Part shown: one piece after another, positions 3,898-54,614 of the stretch
Layout of the letters: every line of letters begins with the position of its first letter
Position numbering within the stretch: the first letter of the stretch is position 1
Source: an uncultured Clostridia bacterium
Lineage (GTDB): Bacteria; Bacillota_I; Bacilli_A; RF39; UBA660
Reading direction: 5' to 3'
NCBI GenBank assembly: GCA_947643225.1
Contig: CANRVH010000002.1
Location: 9,628 to 73,627, forward strand
Length of the DNA stretch: 64,000 nt
Program-made: the position numbers and the translations under genes
Notes under the pieces: model-generated
The model's database searches: none
What the model saw: only the letters and a program-made list of their open reading frames with translations
Told to the model about the DNA's origin: nothing

Positions 3898-3929
3898 CAA
3901 TTTACTGGTTAAATAAATCAGTATTAAAT

Positions 3930-4005
3930 GGGGCATTAGCTCAGCTGGGAGAGCGTCACGTTTGCACCGTGAAGGTCAGCGGTTCGATCCCGCTATGCTC
4001 CACCA
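3930..4005 (+). tRNA. tRNA-Ala (anticodon TGC)
   Basis: Cloverleaf folded by hand. Acceptor GGGGCAT/ATGCTCC; D arm GCTC..GAGC; anticodon stem TCACG/CGTGA with loop TTTGCAC; T arm GGTTCGATCC; encoded CCA. Confidence 0.9.
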
Positions 4006-4115
4006 GATTGATAGGAAACTCGAACTTTTCGAGTATTAAGTAAAACGACTTGTCAAAAAGTCGTTTTTATGATATTATGAATATGTCAAGGAAACTTGCA
4101 TAAAATAAAAAAGGG
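4006..4115 (+). repeat. tRNA-adjacent ~110-bp repeat module, copy A (hairpin ACTCGAA..TTCGAGT; terminator-like hairpin AAAACGACTtgtcaaaaAGTCGTTTTT; conserved core ATATGTCAAGGAAACTTGCATAAAATAAAAAAGG)
   Basis: Near-identical to 49627-49738 (after tRNA-Arg) and to the inverted copy at 51873-51988. Starts at the first base after the tRNA CCA. Confidence 0.8.
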
Positions 4116-4205
4116 GAATACTTAACGCTCCAATGTTGAGTACTCGCCACTAATTTGTGTAAGCACTTAATTTACTGAATGTAAATTGAGTGCTTTTCTC
4201 TTATT
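4103..4205 (+). ncRNA. putative small antisense RNA (candidate type I antitoxin) A; convergent with peptide gene 4214-4297
   Basis: TTGCAT -35-like in the module core. Ends in an intrinsic terminator (GCACTTAATTTACtgaatgTAAATTGAGTGC + TTTTCTC, 4165-4203). No ORF. Its 3' end abuts or overlaps the 3' end of the minus-strand peptide gene. Boundaries are approximate. Confidence 0.3.
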
Positions 4206-4213
4206 ATAGATTA

Positions 4214-4297
4214 CTACTTTACTAAAGTAAAAAGTAAGGCTATGAGTAAGATGATAATTAAAATAAGAGATGAGATTAAAAAATCTTTCTTATGCAT
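4214..4297 (-). CDS. 27-aa hydrophobic peptide MHKKDFLISSLILIIILLIALLFTLVK (candidate type I toxin, Fst/SprA1-like)
   Basis: Hand-translated minus-strand ORF with RBS AGGAGG 8 nt upstream of ATG. Paralogous to the peptide at 51710-51793 (MNKKDFLIFALVIIIFLLLLLLFITLI). Not in the ORF track because it is under 60 aa. Confidence 0.5.
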   Translation of the reverse strand: MHKKDFLISSLILIIILLIALLFTLVK

Positions 4298-4420
4298 ATC
4301 ATCAGCCTCCTTTCTTACGAAAGTTGGCAAGCATTCAACTGCTAATATATTCCCTAAGTAAATTATAGCAAGAGATTTGCTGTATAACAATATGATTGAC
4401 TAAATTTTGTCAATTTAATA

Positions 4421-4458
4421 AAAAACACGCTTGTATATTGCCAAATCAATATACATTA
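4421..4458 (+). promoter_or_regulatory. conserved promoter/operator motif copy 1 (AAACACgCTTGtATATTGcCAAATCAATATACATTA), upstream of the DUF1653 pseudogene
   Basis: One of four copies of a ~30-bp motif. It contains the dyad ATATTG-N6/7-CAATAT and lies between -35-like and -10-like hexamers. Confidence 0.45.
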
Positions 4459-4480
4459 ACTAAAGAAAGGAAACAATATT

Positions 4481-4732
4481 ATGAATGAAATACAAGTAAA
4501 CAAGATTTATAAGCATTTTAAGGGGAAATTCATTAGAGTCGTATGTGTAGGACTTGATGCAGAAACAAAAAAAGAAATGGTAGCAATCGAAGAACTAGAG
4601 GAATCAGAAGGATATCCAAAAGGTCAAATATGATTTAGAGATAAAAGTGATTTTTTTAAAGAAGTTGATCATGAAAAATATCCAGATATAAAGCAAAAAT
4701 ACAGATTTGAGTTACAGGATGATATAAATTAG
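4481..4732 (+). pseudogene. DUF1653-family gene with in-frame TGA at the conserved Trp position
   Basis: Translates MNEIQVNKIYKHFKGKFIRV...GYPKGQI*FRDKSDFFKEV...KQKYRFELQDDIN. The stop aligns with W in the intact paralog at 8352-8576 (..NSPLWVRPYSLFLDEV..RFELQ). Good RBS. Confidence 0.6.
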
Positions 4733-8351: not shown

Positions 8352-8576
8352 ATGGAAGTAAAAATAAAGGGAATTTATAAGCACTATAAAGGGGATTATT
8401 ACATTGTAGAAGACATTGCTATCCATAGTGAAACATTAGAAAAAATGATTATTTATAGAGGACTATATGAAAATAGTCCTCTATGGGTAAGACCCTATTC
8501 TTTATTTTTAGATGAGGTAAATAAAAATAACCAAAAATATAGATTTGAACTCCAAGAAATAAAAAGCAAAAGATAA
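8352..8576 (+). CDS. DUF1653 family protein (intact paralog)
   Basis: YKHYKG..Y.V..IA.HSET.E..V.Y..LY...W.RP...F...V.....RFEL pattern. RBS AGGAGG. Confidence 0.6.
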   Translation: MEVKIKGIYKHYKGDYYIVEDIAIHSETLEKMIIYRGLYENSPLWVRPYSLFLDEVNKNNQKYRFELQEIKSKR

Positions 8577-16115: not shown

Positions 16116-16243
16116 TGACATCATATATAGTCTTGTGATAGAATCTAGTTGTTTGAAGCCTCATCTTCAAACCGCATTGAAAAGGTTTAAAAACGATATG
16201 TACCTTAAAAGCGAGTCTTAAGATTTTATAAAGGAGGTAAGTT
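16116..16243 (+). promoter_or_regulatory. rplU promoter plus probable ribosomal-protein L21 leader
   Basis: TTGACA (16116) followed by an extended TGtgaTAGAAT -10. Hairpin GTTTGAAGcctcatCTTCAAAC in the 5' UTR, typical of the Firmicutes L21 leader position. Confidence 0.45.
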
Positions 16244-49549: not shown

Positions 49550-49626
49550 ATCCCCGTAGCTCACCTGGATAGAGCAAAAGTTTCCTAAACTTTAGGTAGT
49601 AGGTTCAAGTCCTATCGGGGATACCA
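49550..49626 (+). tRNA. tRNA-Arg (anticodon CCT)
   Basis: Hand-folded. Acceptor ATCCCCG/CGGGGAT; D arm GCTC..GAGC; anticodon stem AAAGT/ACTTT with loop TTCCTAA; T loop TTCAAGT; encoded CCA. Confidence 0.85.
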
Positions 49627-49738
49627 GATTGATAACAAACTCGAACTTTCGAGTAACAAGAGAAAGAACGACTTGTCAAAAAGTCGTTTTTATGTTACTA
49701 TGAATATGTCAAGGAAACTTGCATAAAATAAAAAAGGA
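49627..49738 (+). repeat. tRNA-adjacent ~110-bp repeat module, copy B
   Basis: GATTGATAacAAACTCGAACTTTCGAGTA...AACGACTTGTCAAAAAGTCGTTTTTATG..ATGAATATGTCAAGGAAACTTGCATAAAATAAAAAAGG. Same start position relative to the CCA as copy A. Confidence 0.8.
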
Positions 49739-49827
49739 TACATTTGATTGTGAGAATCAGATGTAATCCCTTGAAGGATAGCATCTGAAATCAACTAATG
49801 TTGAAATCAGATGCTTTGTCTATTTTA
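49725..49827 (+). ncRNA. putative small antisense RNA (candidate type I antitoxin) B
   Basis: No ORF. Terminator GCATCTGAAATCAA..TTGAAATCAGATGC + TTTGTCTATTTT (49781-49827) overlaps the stop of the minus-strand peptide gene. Contains GCATCTGA, complementary to ATCAGATGC in the peptide mRNA 5' UTR. Boundaries approximate. Confidence 0.3.
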
Positions 49828-49897
49828 GGAGTAAAATGATTACTACTAAAAATAGGAGTAATATTATAATAAACTGAAATAGTTCTCTTTTTGTCAT
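49820..49897 (-). CDS. 25-aa hydrophobic peptide MTKRELFQFIIILLLFLVVIILLLK (candidate type I toxin)
   Basis: Internal Met of track ORF 49820-50041, with RBS AAAGGTGGTGA. Charged N-terminus plus a single TM, like peptides A and C. Confidence 0.45.
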   Translation of the reverse strand: MTKRELFQFIIILLLFLVVIILLLK

Positions 49898-50034
49898 AAA
49901 TATCACCACCTTTCTTTTATCTTTGATAAATAGAAAGGGAAAGCATCTGATATTTTCAAACGTATCCATTAACATTATAGCAAACATTTGTTCTTCATAC
50001 AATAAATTTAATACTAAATGTTGTGATAATTTAG

Positions 50035-50060
50035 AAAACACACTTGCATATTGTCATAAT
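50035..50060 (+). promoter_or_regulatory. conserved promoter/operator motif copy 3 (AAAACACACTTGCATATTGTCATAAT), upstream of the MTase pseudogene
   Basis: Left half of the motif is conserved and the -10-like TGtCATAAT sits at the expected position. The right dyad arm is lost. Confidence 0.4.
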
Positions 50061-50102: not shown

Positions 50103-50669
50103 ATGACTTTTAAAGAAAAGGCTAAAAATTATGATAATGAATCAAGAGAAAAACGATCTCAAATCATTGCAGAAAAGATATTGAACATTGTTGGAGATAA
50201 ACAAAACTCTATGATGATGGAATATGGCTGTGCAACTGGATTAATATCGTTTCATTTATATGATAGATTTAAAAAATTAACTTTGATTGATTCTGAAGAG
50301 TAAATAATAAATATAGTAAGAAAAAAAGTTATTAATTATAATATATCTAATGTTATACCTATTAGAAAAGATTTAACAAAAGAAAAATATAATGTAGAAA
50401 AATTTGATGTTATTTTTACTTCATTGACACTTTATCACATAGTAGATGTAAAAAATATGATAAAGACATTTTATAGTATGTTAAATAAAGATGGTATATT
50501 AATTATAGATTTAGATAAAGAAGATGGTAGTTTTCATATGGATACAAAAGATTTTAGTGGTCATAATGGATTTGAACATAAATATATGGAAAATATATTA
50601 AAATCTGTTGGATTGTTTAATATTAAATCTGAAACATTTTTCAATAGCGAAAAGAAGATAAAAAAATAA
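50103..50669 (+). pseudogene. class I SAM-dependent methyltransferase interrupted by one in-frame TAA (50301-50303)
   Basis: Two track ORFs (50103-50303, 50424-50669) share one frame. Read through: motif I EYGCATG, post-I LIDSEE*, motif II FDVIFTS, motif III LNKDGILII. Confidence 0.6.
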
Positions 50670-50732: not shown

Positions 50733-51485
50733 CTATTTAGAACTATATATAAGATGATAAGGATATCCCCTTTTATCAATATTATCTAAATTTAGGTTTA
50801 AATCTTTAGCTAATTTAAGTAATTTATCATATTCGTTCATAGCGCTTTCATCATAATTTTTAACTTCTATTTCTATAAAATATCCTAAATTTTCTACATA
50901 ATCTAAGGCAATTTCATATTTATTTAAGTAAAAATATGTATCCCTTACTTTATTAACTATTGCGATTTCTTCCATTCCTAGAATTTTAAAAATTTTATCT
51001 AAATTAACTTCATTATCTATTTCAACTTCATATTCATCACAATACATATTGTTGTACCAATTTTTGTAATTTAGTATTTTTTTATTACCTCTTATTCCTA
51101 TTCTAAGCCATTCGTTTATCATTTTTTTACCATCATTTAGAAACCTTCTATGAGTCGGTTGATAATATGCATCAACTTGTTTACTCTCATTTAAAAATTT
51201 AGCATTATTTTTCATAAAAATTTCAATTTTATGAAATTCATTTTTTGAAAGTTTTATTTTTACCTCTGTTTCTATATCATTTTTCTTTGTATTTCCATGA
51301 ATTAAGTAACTAGCATTACAATTAAATAACTCGCTTAATTTAATTATAGTTTCTAAACTGGGTTCTGTTCTATTAGATTCCCAACTTGAAATTGTTTTAT
51401 CAGTTACAAAAATTTTATTTGCCAAATCATTTTGGGTCCATTTTTTATTTTTTCTCAAATCTGCTATTCGATTTCCTAAATTCAT
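50733..51485 (-). CDS. XRE-family HTH fused to CYTH domain (CyaB-like class IV adenylyl cyclase/triphosphate tunnel fold)
   Basis: N-terminal HTH (RIADLRKNKKWTQNDLANKIFVTDKTISSWESNRTEPSLETIIKLSELFN). CYTH motifs ETEVKIKL, VDAYYQPT, WLRIGIRGNKKILNYK, EYEVEID, RDTYFYL, LDYVENLGYFIEIEV. Start assigned to the internal ATG at 51485 (RBS GGTGA); the track ORF extends to 51632 across its own promoter. Confidence 0.65.
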   Translation of the reverse strand: MNLGNRIADLRKNKKWTQNDLANKIFVTDKTISSWESNRTEPSLETIIKLSELFNCNASYLIHGNTKKNDIETEVKIKLSKNEFHKIEIFMKNNAKFLNESKQVDAYYQPTHRRFLNDGKKMINEWLRIGIRGNKKILNYKNWYNNMYCDEYEVEIDNEVNLDKIFKILGMEEIAIVNKVRDTYFYLNKYEIALDYVENLGYFIEIEVKNYDESAMNEYDKLLKLAKDLNLNLDNIDKRGYPYHLIYSSK

Positions 51486-51550: not shown

Positions 51551-51587
51551 AGTCGTTATTTGATTTTGTCAAATTGCAAGTGTGTTT
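51551..51587 (-). promoter_or_regulatory. conserved promoter/operator motif copy 4 (AAAACACACTTGCAATTTGACAAAATCAAATAACGAC), upstream of the HTH-CYTH gene
   Basis: Dyad ATTTG-N7-CAAAT; TATCAT -10-like just downstream. Candidate autoregulatory site. Confidence 0.45.
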
Positions 51588-51709
51588 TCTATATTGAAAA
51601 AATTTAATATAAAACCGCCGATTTAAGAACAAATGTTTACTATAATAAATTTAGGAACGCTTAATAAGTTGGGTGGAGCCAAACTTCATAAAAGAAGGGA
51701 GGCGATATA

Positions 51710-51793
51710 ATGAACAAGAAAGATTTCTTAATCTTTGCTCTAGTAATTATTATCTTCCTTTTACTATTATTGTTATTTATAACTTTAATATAA
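51710..51793 (+). CDS. 27-aa hydrophobic peptide MNKKDFLIFALVIIIFLLLLLLFITLI (candidate type I toxin, paralog of peptide A)
   Basis: RBS AAGGGAGG. TATAAT -10 at 51643-51648. The 3' end abuts the hairpin TCCACCTAA..TTAGGTGGA. Confidence 0.5.
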   Translation: MNKKDFLIFALVIIIFLLLLLLFITLI

Positions 51794-51885
51794 AAGAAAT
51801 CCACCTAACTCTAGCATAGATTTAGGTGGAACCAAATACATGGTGACACTCAACACTGCAATATTGAATGTTCCTTTTATTTTAT
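51787..51885 (-). ncRNA. putative small antisense RNA (candidate type I antitoxin) C
   Basis: Minus-strand terminator TCCACCTAAatctatgctagagTTAGGTGGA + TTTCTTTTAT. The segment TTTGGTTCCACCTAAA can pair with 15 contiguous nt (2 G-U) of the peptide mRNA 5' UTR (TTGGGTGGAGCCAAA). Its 5' part (CAGTGTTGAGTGTC) is homologous to sRNA A (CAATGTTGAGTACTC). Confidence 0.35.
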
Positions 51886-51988
51886 GCAAGTTTCCTTGAC
51901 ATATTGACCATAACATAAAAACGCACCTTTATCAAGTACGTTTTTTAATTACTACTCGAACTCTCACTATTTTATGTATTCGAGTTTT
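51873..51988 (-). repeat. repeat module, copy C (inverted orientation, no adjacent tRNA)
   Basis: Reverse complement carries ACTCGAA..TTCGAGT, then AAAAAACGTAC..GTGCGTTTTTATG and the identical core ATATGTCAAGGAAACTTGCATAAAATAAAAGG. Confidence 0.75.
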
Positions 51989-52846: not shown

Positions 52847-52994
52847 CATGCACTTTTTATTAAATTGACTAATAATTCTAATTTTTATTGAAAGCAAATA
52901 ACTTCAAAAAAAGTAGTTTTTATGCTATGATAACGATATCGAAATATCTTTTATCAAAAAGAAATATTTAAATGGTCTTAATTGAAATAACAAA

Positions 52995-54614
52995 GTGGTG
53001 ATGCAAGGAATGAATACAAATATTAATTTTATTTTTAGGAGTCTCAATAAAAAGAAGATAATTGTTTGTTTATTGATAGAGGCATTTTTAGACTTTATTT
53101 ATTTTTTAGTTCCCTTTGCTTTCACATTATTTTTAACTTTACCTTTTACCATTGAAAAGGCAGTCATTGTAATAGCAATATTTATGATCTCTAAAACATT
53201 TCGTGTTGCAGGAAACTATTTATTAAGAAAATATAGGGATAATTATTTATATGAACATTCAAAGATACAATATCAAGAATATTATAAAAAATTAAGTAAA
53301 TTACCTGTAGAAACGATATCAAAGTATCAAACTGGATATTTTGAAAATATAATCGAGAAAATTAGTGGATTAGTAAGAAACATATTACAGGCAGAGTATA
53401 TAAGTATAGTAATAACTTTTATTTTCTTGTTTTATACATTATATAATCAGTCAATACTACTATTTATCAGTTCATTTATTACAAGTAGTATTTGTATAGT
53501 TTTAAGCATTAGAATATTACAAAAAGCAAATAAACAAGTGGAAAAATTATATGACCAAGAGTATCAATATTCATCAAATTATAATGATTATATTAATAAT
53601 ATTCGTACAGTTAAACTATTAAATAACAATAATTACTTTGCTAATAAAATTGGTAAGGAAGGTAAAAAATGTTATCATGAAGAACAGAAATATGTTAAAT
53701 ATTATTCTTTAGAAGAAGTTTTACGCAATATATTAATCGTTATTCCATTTTTTCTTGGTTTAATAAAAGCTACTATTGACCTAGAAAAGGGGATTGATAC
53801 ACTAGGAATTATTACTTTTTATATTTCGCTACATATCGAAATGGGATTTATATTTGAAGAGTTATCTGGAACAATAATCAATTGGTACGAGTTGAAAGCA
53901 ATAAAAAACAAATTAAATTGTATATTTAAAGATTTAGATTATAGAAAAGAGCTGAAAACCTTTCATAAAATTGAGTTATCTAATATTATAATAGAGTATC
54001 CCAAATCAACGTTAAAAATAGGAGTAGATCACTTAATCATAAATGATAATGATAAAATATCGATTACAGGTCAATCAGGCCAAGGGAAAACTTCTATAAT
54101 TAATTTAATTTTAGGCAACATTAATTCGTATAAAGGAAAGATTTTAATTGATGGTAAAAATTTAAAGTATGTAAAGTTAGATATTGGTGTTGTAAGTCAA
54201 GAAATAGAATTATTTAATATGTCTATCAAAGATAATTTATGTCTAGGAAGAAGAATACCAGATGAAGAAATTAAAAAATATTTGAAGGAACTTGAATTAG
54301 ATGAAATACTAATGTTTGAAGACGGAATTAATACAGTTATTGGTGAAAAAGGATTAAAATTATCTACTGGTCAAAAAAGAAGAATAAATATATTAAGAAG
54401 TTATTTAATGAAAAAAGATATCTATATTTTAGATGAACCAACCTCTAATTTAGATAGTCACACAGAAGAAATAGTAATTAACTTTATCCTAAAATATTTT
54501 AAAGATAAAACCTTAATTATTGCTACACATAATAAGAAAATAAATACAATATGTAATCAATTTTATACCTTTAAAAATCACAAATTAATAAAAATCGATC
54601 ACTTTGCTTCTTAG
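52995..54614 (+). CDS. ABC exporter, fused permease-ATPase (type I exporter; no C39 peptidase domain)
   Basis: N-terminal 6-TM domain. Walker A GQSGQGKTS, signature LSTGQKRR, Walker B ILDEPTSNLD. Confidence 0.8.
   Translation: MVMQGMNTNINFIFRSLNKKKIIVCLLIEAFLDFIYFLVPFAFTLFLTLPFTIEKAVIVIAIFMISKTFRVAGNYLLRKYRDNYLYEHSKIQYQEYYKKLSKLPVETISKYQTGYFENIIEKISGLVRNILQAEYISIVITFIFLFYTLYNQSILLFISSFITSSICIVLSIRILQKANKQVEKLYDQEYQYSSNYNDYINNIRTVKLLNNNNYFANKIGKEGKKCYHEEQKYVKYYSLEEVLRNILIVIPFFLGLIKATIDLEKGIDTLGIITFYISLHIEMGFIFEELSGTIINWYELKAIKNKLNCIFKDLDYRKELKTFHKIELSNIIIEYPKSTLKIGVDHLIINDNDKISITGQSGQGKTSIINLILGNINSYKGKILIDGKNLKYVKLDIGVVSQEIELFNMSIKDNLCLGRRIPDEEIKKYLKELELDEILMFEDGINTVIGEKGLKLSTGQKRRINILRSYLMKKDIYILDEPTSNLDSHTEEIVINFILKYFKDKTLIIATHNKKINTICNQFYTFKNHKLIKIDHFAS

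Follow-up and report, generated by a model that had tools for sequence, protein, structure and literature searches.

The stretch of DNA analysed here, called the window throughout, comprises 64,000 nucleotides (nt) of contig CANRVH010000002.1 (GenBank assembly GCA_947643225.1, positions 9,628 to 73,627 of the forward strand) from an uncultured Clostridia bacterium (GTDB lineage Bacteria; Bacillota_I; Bacilli_A; RF39; UBA660). It contains three copies, A, B and C, of a repeated cassette that is considered here as a candidate type I toxin–antitoxin system. Cassettes A and B directly follow transfer RNA (tRNA) genes, i.e., tRNA-Ala(tgc) at 3930-4005 (+; found by ARAGORN and as Rfam RF00005 with 64.5 bits) and tRNA-Arg(cct) at 49550-49626 (+; ARAGORN and Rfam), and cassette C lies inverted, with no tRNA. 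An initial annotation of this DNA had described an identical module of about 110 bp immediately 3′ of both tRNAs, together with the inverted third copy. The repeat is real: a 30-nt core, ATATGTCAAGGAAACTTGCATAAAATAAAA, occurs exactly at 4081-4110 (+), 49704-49733 (+) and 51875-51904 (−), compared with none by chance (0 of 100 shuffles with any core match), and both tRNA-linked modules begin at the base right after CCA. However, the modules are not identical, since 4006-4115 and 49627-49738 agree in 101 of 113 aligned columns (89%) and the inverted copy is only ~72% identical to either of them. The homology among the three copies also covers ~450 bp rather than 110 bp (~530 nt aligned per copy); between cassettes A and B it amounts to 87-100% identity over 4042-4113, 27-40% over 4114-4345 and 70-83% over 4404-4448, beyond which it falls to background. 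Because the flanks differ and the ~450 bp of homology is diverged, the copies are not duplications of the assembly, an outcome for which the initial annotation had allowed.

Copies in other genomes were collected from a species-representative genome collection using as probe a 20-mer, ATGTCAAGGAAACTTGCATA, taken from the hairpin P1 described below. The 20-mer matches at least 119 stretches, nearly all of them metagenome-assembled genomes (MAGs) of uncultured gut Bacilli, 'Tenericutes' or Erysipelotrichaceae, with at least 127 instances, 110 of which were evaluable for an open reading frame (ORF); the counts given here hold among the matches listed. Altogether, gut MAGs and metagenomes yielded more than 160 related copies. 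The cassette family is abundant in uncultured gut Bacilli with small genomes, which come from rabbit, chicken, mouse, goat and human. Some cassettes occur in tandem or as near pairs (loci L016 at 1166 and 1645, L038 at 4773 and 5172, L073 at 4671 and 5002, the tandems being 331-479 nt apart; further pairs in L069 at 1874 and 3053 and L057 at 2201 and 2948), and the members of such pairs and tandems are often of different peptide subfamilies.

The segment that abuts the tRNA (4006-4036, +; GATTGATAGG followed by hairpin H0, ACTCG 4018-4022 / CGAGT 4030-4034) is, judging from comparison of related loci, the trailer of the tRNA gene itself, and the cassette proper starts at the next hairpin, T1. 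This assignment follows from the presence of the same trailer behind cassette-free tRNAs in related MAGs: the first third of the module (GATTGATA plus the ACTCGAAC hairpin) is also found 3′ of tRNAs that carry no cassette, and H0 covaries among related loci (ACTCGA/TCGAGT, ACTCAGA/TCTGAGT, GTTCGAAC/..CGAAC). At cassette-free tRNAs of the same MAGs, the GATTGATAnnAAACTCGAAC trailer usually closes as a full terminator, GTTCGAGTTTT. The arrangement GATTGATAnnAAACTCGAAC-loop-GTTCGAGTTTT is common to different tRNA species and genomes, with or without a cassette (window 4006-4036 and 49627-49656; loci L014, L015, L016, L031, L033, L052, L074 and L108), and such a lineage-wide, sequence-conserved tRNA terminator is unusual.

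T1 (4042-4068, no strand assigned; AAAACGACT / AGTCGTTTT, then a T-run) was read from the sequence and likely serves as the terminator of the tRNA transcript. Its loop carries a −35 box, TTGTCA (4050-4055), which is followed at a spacing of 17 nt by an extended −10 box, TGaTATTAT (4070-4078, +). The promoter scan scored this promoter in cassette A at 10 out of 12 with the TG and predicted a start at ~4083-4085; the core begins 5-7 nt past the −10 box. The TG-extended −10 box is present in 119 of 123 distinct upstream regions, as a hexamer TAnnnT with the TG one base before it that ends, at a fixed distance, 4 nt ahead of the 20-mer. A −35 box TTGnnA at 17-nt spacing occurs in 107 of 123 copies, and cassettes without a tRNA often carry a plain TTGACA. 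Thus the hairpins noted initially, and the claim that the module brings its own terminator-like hairpin and promoter, are borne out, with the promoter being TTGTCA-17-TATTAT upstream of the core. The −35-like hexamers that the initial annotation had pointed to within the core (TTGCAT forward, TTGACAT reverse) have no conserved −10 partner and were not called by the promoter scan; the core as a promoter pair was therefore rejected, the core lying downstream of the conserved extended −10 box.

A degenerate remnant of the module had further been proposed at about 52905-52940. The similarity exists, in that 52895-52939 (+) matches the hairpin-plus-promoter part (~73% over 44 nt) with a T1-like hairpin and a TGcTATGAT promoter, but the core, and with it P1, is absent. 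This segment lies ~55 nt before an ABC-transporter ORF (52995-54614) and is probably a terminator and promoter ahead of that ORF; the design of a terminator with an embedded promoter is therefore reused outside the cassettes.

From the extended −10 box onwards, the predicted transcript is a small RNA (sRNA) of ~120 nt that consists of a 5′-terminal hairpin, P1, an A-run, a variable hairpin, P2, and an intrinsic terminator, P3. In cassette A, the folds place P1 (UAUG(U)CAAG-GAAA-CUUGCAUA) at 4082-4102 (+), i.e., in the first two thirds of the core, and the A-run at 4103-4112 (+), its last third. P2 at 4113-4148 (+) is supported by the fold and by covariation, and P3 at 4161-4204 (+; stem 4161-4195 plus U-run) by covariation and the terminator scan, which called P3 as the sole terminator at this copy and on the sRNA strand only. 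The fold of 4079-4204 shows the three hairpins with z = −6.8, and the sRNA of cassette B folds with a minimum free energy of −42.9 kcal/mol and z = −7.6. On the reverse strand, P2 and the A-run together form a canonical intrinsic terminator, GGCGAGTACTCAAC..GTTAAGTATTCCCC TTTTTTATTTTAT, downstream of a small ORF, the A-run being the complement of the U-tract in this peptide-mRNA terminator and the complement of P2 being its hairpin as well as the 3′ partner of the 5′–3′ pairing in the messenger RNA (mRNA) described below. This anatomy of promoter, P2 and A-run leads us to read the core as the predicted sRNA's 5′ hairpin plus the complement of the convergent terminator's U-tract.

RNAalifold on the 110 sequences recovered P1, P2 and P3, with compensatory changes in 13 of 15 P2/P3 pairs; P2 itself has 8 pairs, most of them with compensatory changes. 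The same alignment contains ~257 G.U cells on the sRNA strand vs. ~14 if read on the opposite strand, indicating that the P2 and P3 hairpins are maintained on the sRNA strand. P1 is invariant in the set collected with the probe, which is an artefact of P1 having served as the search probe. Searches that did not require P1, i.e., an nhmmer profile without P1, which added 11 copies in the loci, and a metagenome scan with N20 replacing P1, which yielded 44 members of the family carrying 20 different P1 sequences, show that P1 varies while its fold is kept: all 25 P1 variants form the hairpin, with a purine-rich loop, on five different inner stems (CAAG/CUUG, UAAG/CUUA, UUAA/UUAA, GCAA/UUGC and GGAG/CUCC). 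P1 lies outside the overlap between sRNA and peptide mRNA, is common to all peptide subfamilies and has no evident complement in the peptide mRNA. The sequence classes of P2 and P3, by contrast, track the peptide subfamily, as expected if the sRNA pairs with the mRNA. P2 also resembles P3 within one sRNA (in cassette A, ACTTAAC..GTTGAGTACT vs. ACTTAAT..ATTGAGTGCT, within 4113-4195, and in the equivalent regions of the loci), and the 5′ hairpin of the peptide mRNA is of the same sense and sequence type as P2. These resemblances suggest alternative pairings or an origin by duplication.

The small ORF converges on the sRNA in each cassette. The candidate toxin ORFs are MHKKDFLISSLILIIILLIALLFTLVK (27 amino acids (aa); 4214-4297, −) in cassette A, with a Shine–Dalgarno (SD) sequence AGGAGG 8 nt upstream, MTKRELFQFIIILLLFLVVIILLLK (25 aa; 49820-49897, −) in cassette B and MNKKDFLIFALVIIIFLLLLLLFITLI (27 aa; 51710-51793, +) in cassette C. 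For cassette A, the promoter scan found TTGTTA-17-TGcTATAAT at 4390-4362 (−), from which an mRNA starting at ~4355 and running to ~4103 is predicted; the promoter region of the peptide contains a conserved AACAAATGTTTGnTATAAT. The predicted mRNA of cassette B extends from ~49967 to 49726 (−), with the −10 box at 49979-49974, and the −10 box of cassette C is at 51641-51646 (+). A convergent, SD-preceded hydrophobic ORF of 24-31 aa is present in 83 of the 110 evaluable copies, its start at a fixed distance of +179 to +215, so that all three window ORFs and these 83 relatives are small (<60 aa), hydrophobic, membrane-type ORFs with a ribosome-binding site. The peptides have a Lys/Arg-rich N-terminus followed by one transmembrane stretch, and variable sites are distributed over codon positions 1/2/3 as 68/34/77, which in this sequence comparison is the pattern expected for a coding transmembrane segment. 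They fall into at least seven subfamilies, e.g., MTKRExSQFIIILLLF.., MKTKTFIxKVLKLIAIILFLL.., MRKxEKYLCTIIILLIIV.. and MKKKDLLISFLILIIILLIV...

The predicted peptide mRNA is ~220-250 nt long and ends with a terminator exactly complementary to P2 and the A-run together. It and the predicted sRNA are perfectly complementary over ~95 nt, which covers the mRNA 3′ untranslated region and, in some subfamilies, the last codons as well. The analysed copies thus contain, as far as sequence evidence goes, an antisense RNA with its own promoter and terminator that is complementary to the mRNA of the candidate toxin. The mRNA is also predicted to be folded in a way that blocks translation. In cassette B it folds with −79.3 kcal/mol and z = −10.6, its 5′ end paired with its 3′ end and its SD paired. 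In all 53 distinct predicted mRNAs, pairing with the last 70 nt involves between 13 and 29 of the first 30 nt, with a median of 26 vs. 5 for versions in which this 5′ stretch was shuffled (p about 1e-24; 53 mRNAs). The SD is mostly paired in 45 of the 53, and the 3′ partner of this long-distance pairing is the segment covered by the sRNA.

Taken together, these cassettes are probably unannotated type I toxin–antitoxin systems, a reading that we consider well favoured by the convergent layout and the predicted RNAs. The proposed sequence of events is as follows. The tRNA transcript would pass the H0 trailer hairpin and reach T1 with its T-run, which would both end that transcript and supply a −35 box; the −35 in the T1 loop and the extended −10 just past T1 would form a promoter firing the ~120-nt sRNA, whose 5′ end would be the P1 hairpin with its purine-rich, GNRA-type loop. 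On the opposite strand, the convergent promoter would drive the ~220-250-nt peptide mRNA, which alone would fold shut, its first ~30 nt paired with its last ~70 nt and its SD buried. By analogy with bsrG/SR4 and txpA/RatA, the sRNA would pair with the 3′ region of the mRNA, starting at the complementary P2/P3 loops, and the pairing would lead to ribonuclease (RNase) III-type cleavage and/or a locked ribosome-binding site; loss of the sRNA would allow the peptide to be made and to damage the membrane. P1 is most likely a 5′ stability element or a handle for a protein, the stabilising role having its general basis in the 5′-end-dependent RNA decay of Firmicutes. That read-through from the strong tRNA promoter adds to the sRNA, or couples the antitoxin level to tRNA transcription, is speculation.

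Several points weigh against the toxin–antitoxin interpretation. Its support was computed from sequence throughout, and it accounts neither for the role of P1 nor for the linkage to tRNAs. No recognisable ORF was found in 27 of the 110 evaluable copies, some of which are truncated or decayed. In subfamily-chimeric mRNAs, a median of 19 of 30 nt is still paired, so that the 5′–3′ pairing is only partly subfamily-specific; relatedness among the 5′ ends of different subfamilies accounts for the pairing left in the chimeras. The wobble pairs of P1 are uninformative on the strand under selection. The promoter and terminator scan did not call T1 a terminator, its tRNA-terminating role being deduced from its appearance. 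In addition, covariance models of antitoxin RNA families (RNAII/Fst, RatA, SprA1AS, Sok, Sib etc.) and profile hidden Markov models of toxin families (Fst, Ldr, Hok, TisB, Ibs, TxpA etc.) did not recognise the RNA or the peptides. The search for a known RNA family that the initial annotation had suggested gave only tRNA and the L21 leader at Rfam gathering thresholds over the whole window, with no antitoxin family, and at E<=10 over 3900-4520 (cassette A) it gave noise only, again with no antitoxin family. Pfam and NCBIfam searches with the peptides returned best E values of 0.17-4.7, all from unrelated transmembrane segments, and an exact look-up of 10 peptides, including the three window ORFs, in a collection of 15 billion proteins found none of them. 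Neither the present cassette family nor type I systems linked to tRNAs turned up in the literature searches.

Among known systems, the layout is closest to that of Gram-positive type I systems with a 3′ overlap, and by the profile tests the locus belongs to no described toxin or antitoxin family. As in bsrG/SR4, txpA/RatA, bsrE/SR5 and yonT/SR6 of Bacillus subtilis, the genes are convergent and the candidate toxin is small and hydrophobic; in those systems an antisense RNA of ~100-200 nt likewise covers the 3′ end of the toxin mRNA, sometimes including the last codons, and a structured 5′ untranslated region hides the SD, as is predicted here. The B. subtilis systems differ in showing no sequence or profile similarity to the present peptide or RNA, and the present peptides are shorter (24-31 aa). 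These B. subtilis loci lie on prophage-like elements, unlike the tRNA-flanking cassettes, and we know of no constant 5′ hairpin shared across toxin subfamilies in these systems. SR4 promotes decay of its target and tightens SD sequestration from a distance (PMC3834814), which is the mechanism proposed for the present sRNA, and according to T1TAdb an antisense RNA on the 3′ side that partly overlaps is the rule for Gram-positive families (PMC8594479), which the present layout matches.

The par locus of Enterococcus faecalis (Fst/RNAII) and Fst-like loci also have convergent RNAs with terminator hairpins in the overlap and a peptide of ~30 aa with one transmembrane helix, and they have many chromosomal paralogues in Firmicutes. 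However, pairing in par uses 5′ direct repeats outside the overlap (PMC8594479), whereas the present complementarity is the 3′ overlap itself; Pfam and NCBIfam profiles of Fst fail on the present peptides, and no Fst antitoxin was among the Rfam results. An mRNA closed by a 5′–3′ interaction with a buried SD is known from hok/Sok of plasmid R1 and aapA1/IsoA1 of Helicobacter pylori (PMC5416894; Franch et al. 1997, as cited in PMC8594479), and a fold of this type is predicted for all 53 of the present mRNAs. The antisense RNAs of hok/Sok and aapA1/IsoA1 are directed at the 5′ portion of a message that is activated by 3′ trimming, whereas the present one lies over the 3′ side of the long-distance pairing; hok/Sok and aapA1/IsoA1 also occur in other host phyla and show no sequence similarity to the cassette. 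In Clostridioides difficile, a gut Firmicute, previously unannotated, multi-copy type I modules lie beside CRISPR arrays (PMC5961336). A recurrent position next to an RNA-producing locus is thus a shared feature, but the neighbour is a CRISPR array or prophage there vs. a tRNA or transfer-messenger RNA (tmRNA) here, and peptides and RNAs are different. The antitoxins of SprA1/SprA1AS and SprA2/SprA2AS in Staphylococcus aureus overlap the 3′ end of the toxin mRNA and have a non-overlapping 5′ domain (PMC6393315; PMC8594479); there, this domain binds in trans, by pairing, to the ribosome-binding site of the toxin, whereas P1 is a conserved hairpin with no evident complement in the mRNA. Notable features of the present cassettes are the promoter/P1 arm that is constant across subfamilies, the placement at tRNA and tmRNA genes and, at the end away from P1, a second constant block.

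The second constant block lies upstream of the peptide promoter, at 4398-4454 (−) in cassette A (GTATATTG-N6-CAATATACAAGCGTGTTTT...ATTGACAAAATTTAGT), at 50028-50060 (−) in cassette B and at 51563-51595 in cassette C. It comprises a palindrome, ATATTG-N-CAATAT, then GCAAGTGTGTTTT and then a hairpin, ACTAAATTGACAAAATTTAGT, and it shares TATGCAAG with the complement of the P1 3′ arm. By fuzzy matching, 15 of 106 cassettes, most of them tRNA-linked, were seen to carry it, at a constant distance. From its sequence, it might act as an operator or be left over from an adjacent cassette. Another conserved palindromic element, CCCCTAGGTATTTTGACAAGTATATCAAAATACCT, recurs beside cassettes of several MAGs, upstream of peptide promoters (loci L004, L037, L076, L083 and L089).

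As an extension of the toxin–antitoxin interpretation, all toxin subfamilies might share a constant left arm, i.e., the tRNA-terminator-embedded promoter, the P1 hairpin and the A-run, and a palindromic right arm in a single modular system; we put this forward as an unlikely though not negligible possibility. If it were true, homologous recombination at the 3′ flanks of tRNAs and tmRNA would exchange the variable toxin/antisense cores, with no integrase involved, and P1 would serve all antitoxin RNAs of the cell as a shared handle, by which a single host factor (a chaperone or an RNase) determines how long each of them lasts. Through the promoter embedded in the tRNA terminator, the antitoxin supply would then be tied to tRNA transcription, hence to growth rate or the stringent response. 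More generally, type I systems are hard to find by homology, and databases cover few phyla and mostly cultured species (PMC12390103, PMC8594479). The present family is invisible to gene callers, Rfam, Pfam and NCBIfam, and would yield one RNA model and several small-ORF models for the annotation of gut MAGs. At least seven toxin cores on one constant antitoxin 5′ hairpin would constitute a natural experiment on antitoxin RNA stability, and the fact that cassettes repeatedly sit in the terminators of tRNAs and tmRNA hints at a connection between transcription of tRNAs and control of the toxin.

The best-surviving alternative to a toxin–antitoxin system is that the product of the convergent ORF is a small, harmless membrane protein, e.g., a regulator or an accessory subunit, and that the sRNA is an ordinary cis-antisense regulator. 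The same anatomy fits this explanation, and the peptides match no known toxin family; on the other hand, several paralogous copies per genome, tandem arrays included, are type I-toxin-like, and the decayed copies, the at least seven fast-diverging subfamilies, the predicted closed mRNA with its 5′–3′ pairing and buried SD, and the patchy placement in intergenic spots all speak against it, making it improbable.

A much smaller chance attaches to the proposal, close to that of the initial annotation, that the repeat is the boundary of a mobile element, i.e., an att-like site of a tRNA-targeting island or a miniature inverted-repeat transposable element (MITE), with its own terminator and promoter. 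The tRNA association recurs in many genomes: 46 of ~118 instances with enough upstream sequence (39%) follow a tRNA or tmRNA, with tRNAs of 11 anticodons and two cases of tmRNA among the linked genes, and the distance from the gene end to the 20-mer is 42-109 nt, mostly 75-79 nt. One tRNA species carries different peptide subfamilies and one subfamily occurs at different tRNAs, and the cassette is a mosaic with constant arms around a variable core. Cassettes are also 80-90% identical between MAGs whose housekeeping genes are only ~74-76% identical, which fits strong constraint, exchange between lineages, or both. Some copies follow a mere tRNA 3′ remnant (..GCACCA) after a conserved AAAGTTGTnGTACTTCTTCC motif (loci L003, L031, L056, L074 and L103, ~60-100 nt upstream of the 20-mer; also L012, L036 and L097), which, from its sequence, looks like the end of an element integrated in the tRNA gene that displaced the original 3′ end.

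These points in favour of a mobile element are outweighed by the following. The 3′ 25-mer of each tRNA occurs once in the window even with <=3 mismatches allowed, so that the second copy that an att-like site would require is missing. There are no inverted repeats at the cassette ends as in a MITE, the inverted pairs being internal hairpins or cassette B against cassette C. The flanking ORFs encode DUF1653, NUDIX, HTH-CYTH and ABC-transporter proteins, with no integrase or transposase nearby, and a BLAST search of phage and plasmid collections and a scan of viral contigs with the 20-mer gave no match. Moreover, the tRNA-abutting part is the generic trailer found without any cassette, and the core is explained as transcribed RNA and terminator complement. 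What stands of the earlier proposal is a recombination-prone boundary, in that the module is the constant left arm of a mosaic cassette, while its att, MITE and core-promoter parts fall away; a repeat next to tRNAs need not be an att site.

Even less weight can be given to the idea that the module is only a conserved tRNA terminator or trailer with no separate sRNA, the downstream conservation being due to the terminator of the convergent gene. In line with it are the nature of H0 as a trailer generic to tRNAs, the terminator-like look of T1 and the complementarity of the A-run to the U-tract of the convergent terminator. The initial annotation had likewise considered that the module might prove to be a generic terminator fragment. 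Hairpins and a U-run that follow a tRNA whatever lies beyond describe 4006-4068 only, leaving the promoter, P1, P2 and P3 unaccounted for, and ~60% of the cassettes have no tRNA yet keep all four. In addition, the extended −10 box stands at its fixed distance in nearly all copies, P3 terminates on the sRNA strand only, the G.U pairs strongly favour that strand, and P1 covaries although it lies beyond the convergent terminator. Equally remote is a core that acts as a leaderless mini-ORF (ATG TCA AGG AAA CTT GCA TAA = MSRKLA) or as a DNA operator (inverted repeat TATGnCAAG / CTTGCATA) rather than as an RNA hairpin: the ORF is present in all copies with the canonical 20-mer and the motif TATGCAAG recurs in the right-hand block, but the cassette shows no consistent linkage to any candidate DNA-binding protein, and MSRKLA was rejected since P1 variants have ACG, AGG or GCG in place of the start and keep neither frame nor stop, while always keeping the hairpin.

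The remaining parts of cassettes B and C follow the plan of cassette A. The left side of cassette B spans 49627-49821 (+), with the trailer/H0 at 49639-49654, T1 at 49667-49691, the sRNA promoter at 49673-49678 (−35) and 49696-49701 (−10; both +), P1 at 49705-49725, the A-run at 49726-49735, P2 at 49736-49769 and P3 at 49776-49821 (all +). Cassette C occupies 51791-51985 (−), with an H0-like hairpin at 51954-51985, T1 at 51917-51946, the −10 box at 51907-51912, P1 at 51883-51903, the A-run at 51875-51882, P2 at ~51842-51874 and P3 at 51800-51830 plus a U-run (all −).

Between cassettes B and C, 50103-50669 contains two neighbouring partial ORFs, of 66 and 81 aa, that were interpreted as a broken gene and in which Pfam found no domain; this segment is 90% identical to L091 4980-5640 in another MAG, where housekeeping genes are ~25% different. 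It is followed at 50733-51485 (−) by a gene for an XRE-type HTH_3 fused to CYTH (Pfam E = 2.7e-15 and 1.2e-18), which is divergent from toxin C with the constant block in between. Directly after cassette A lies a truncated DUF1653 ORF (50 aa; 4481-4633), and a full-length DUF1653 paralogue (74 aa; 8352-8576) is found 4 kb downstream. The L21 leader mentioned above is that of ribosomal protein L21, at 16159-16228 (+; Rfam RF00559, 38.1 bits, gathering score 36).

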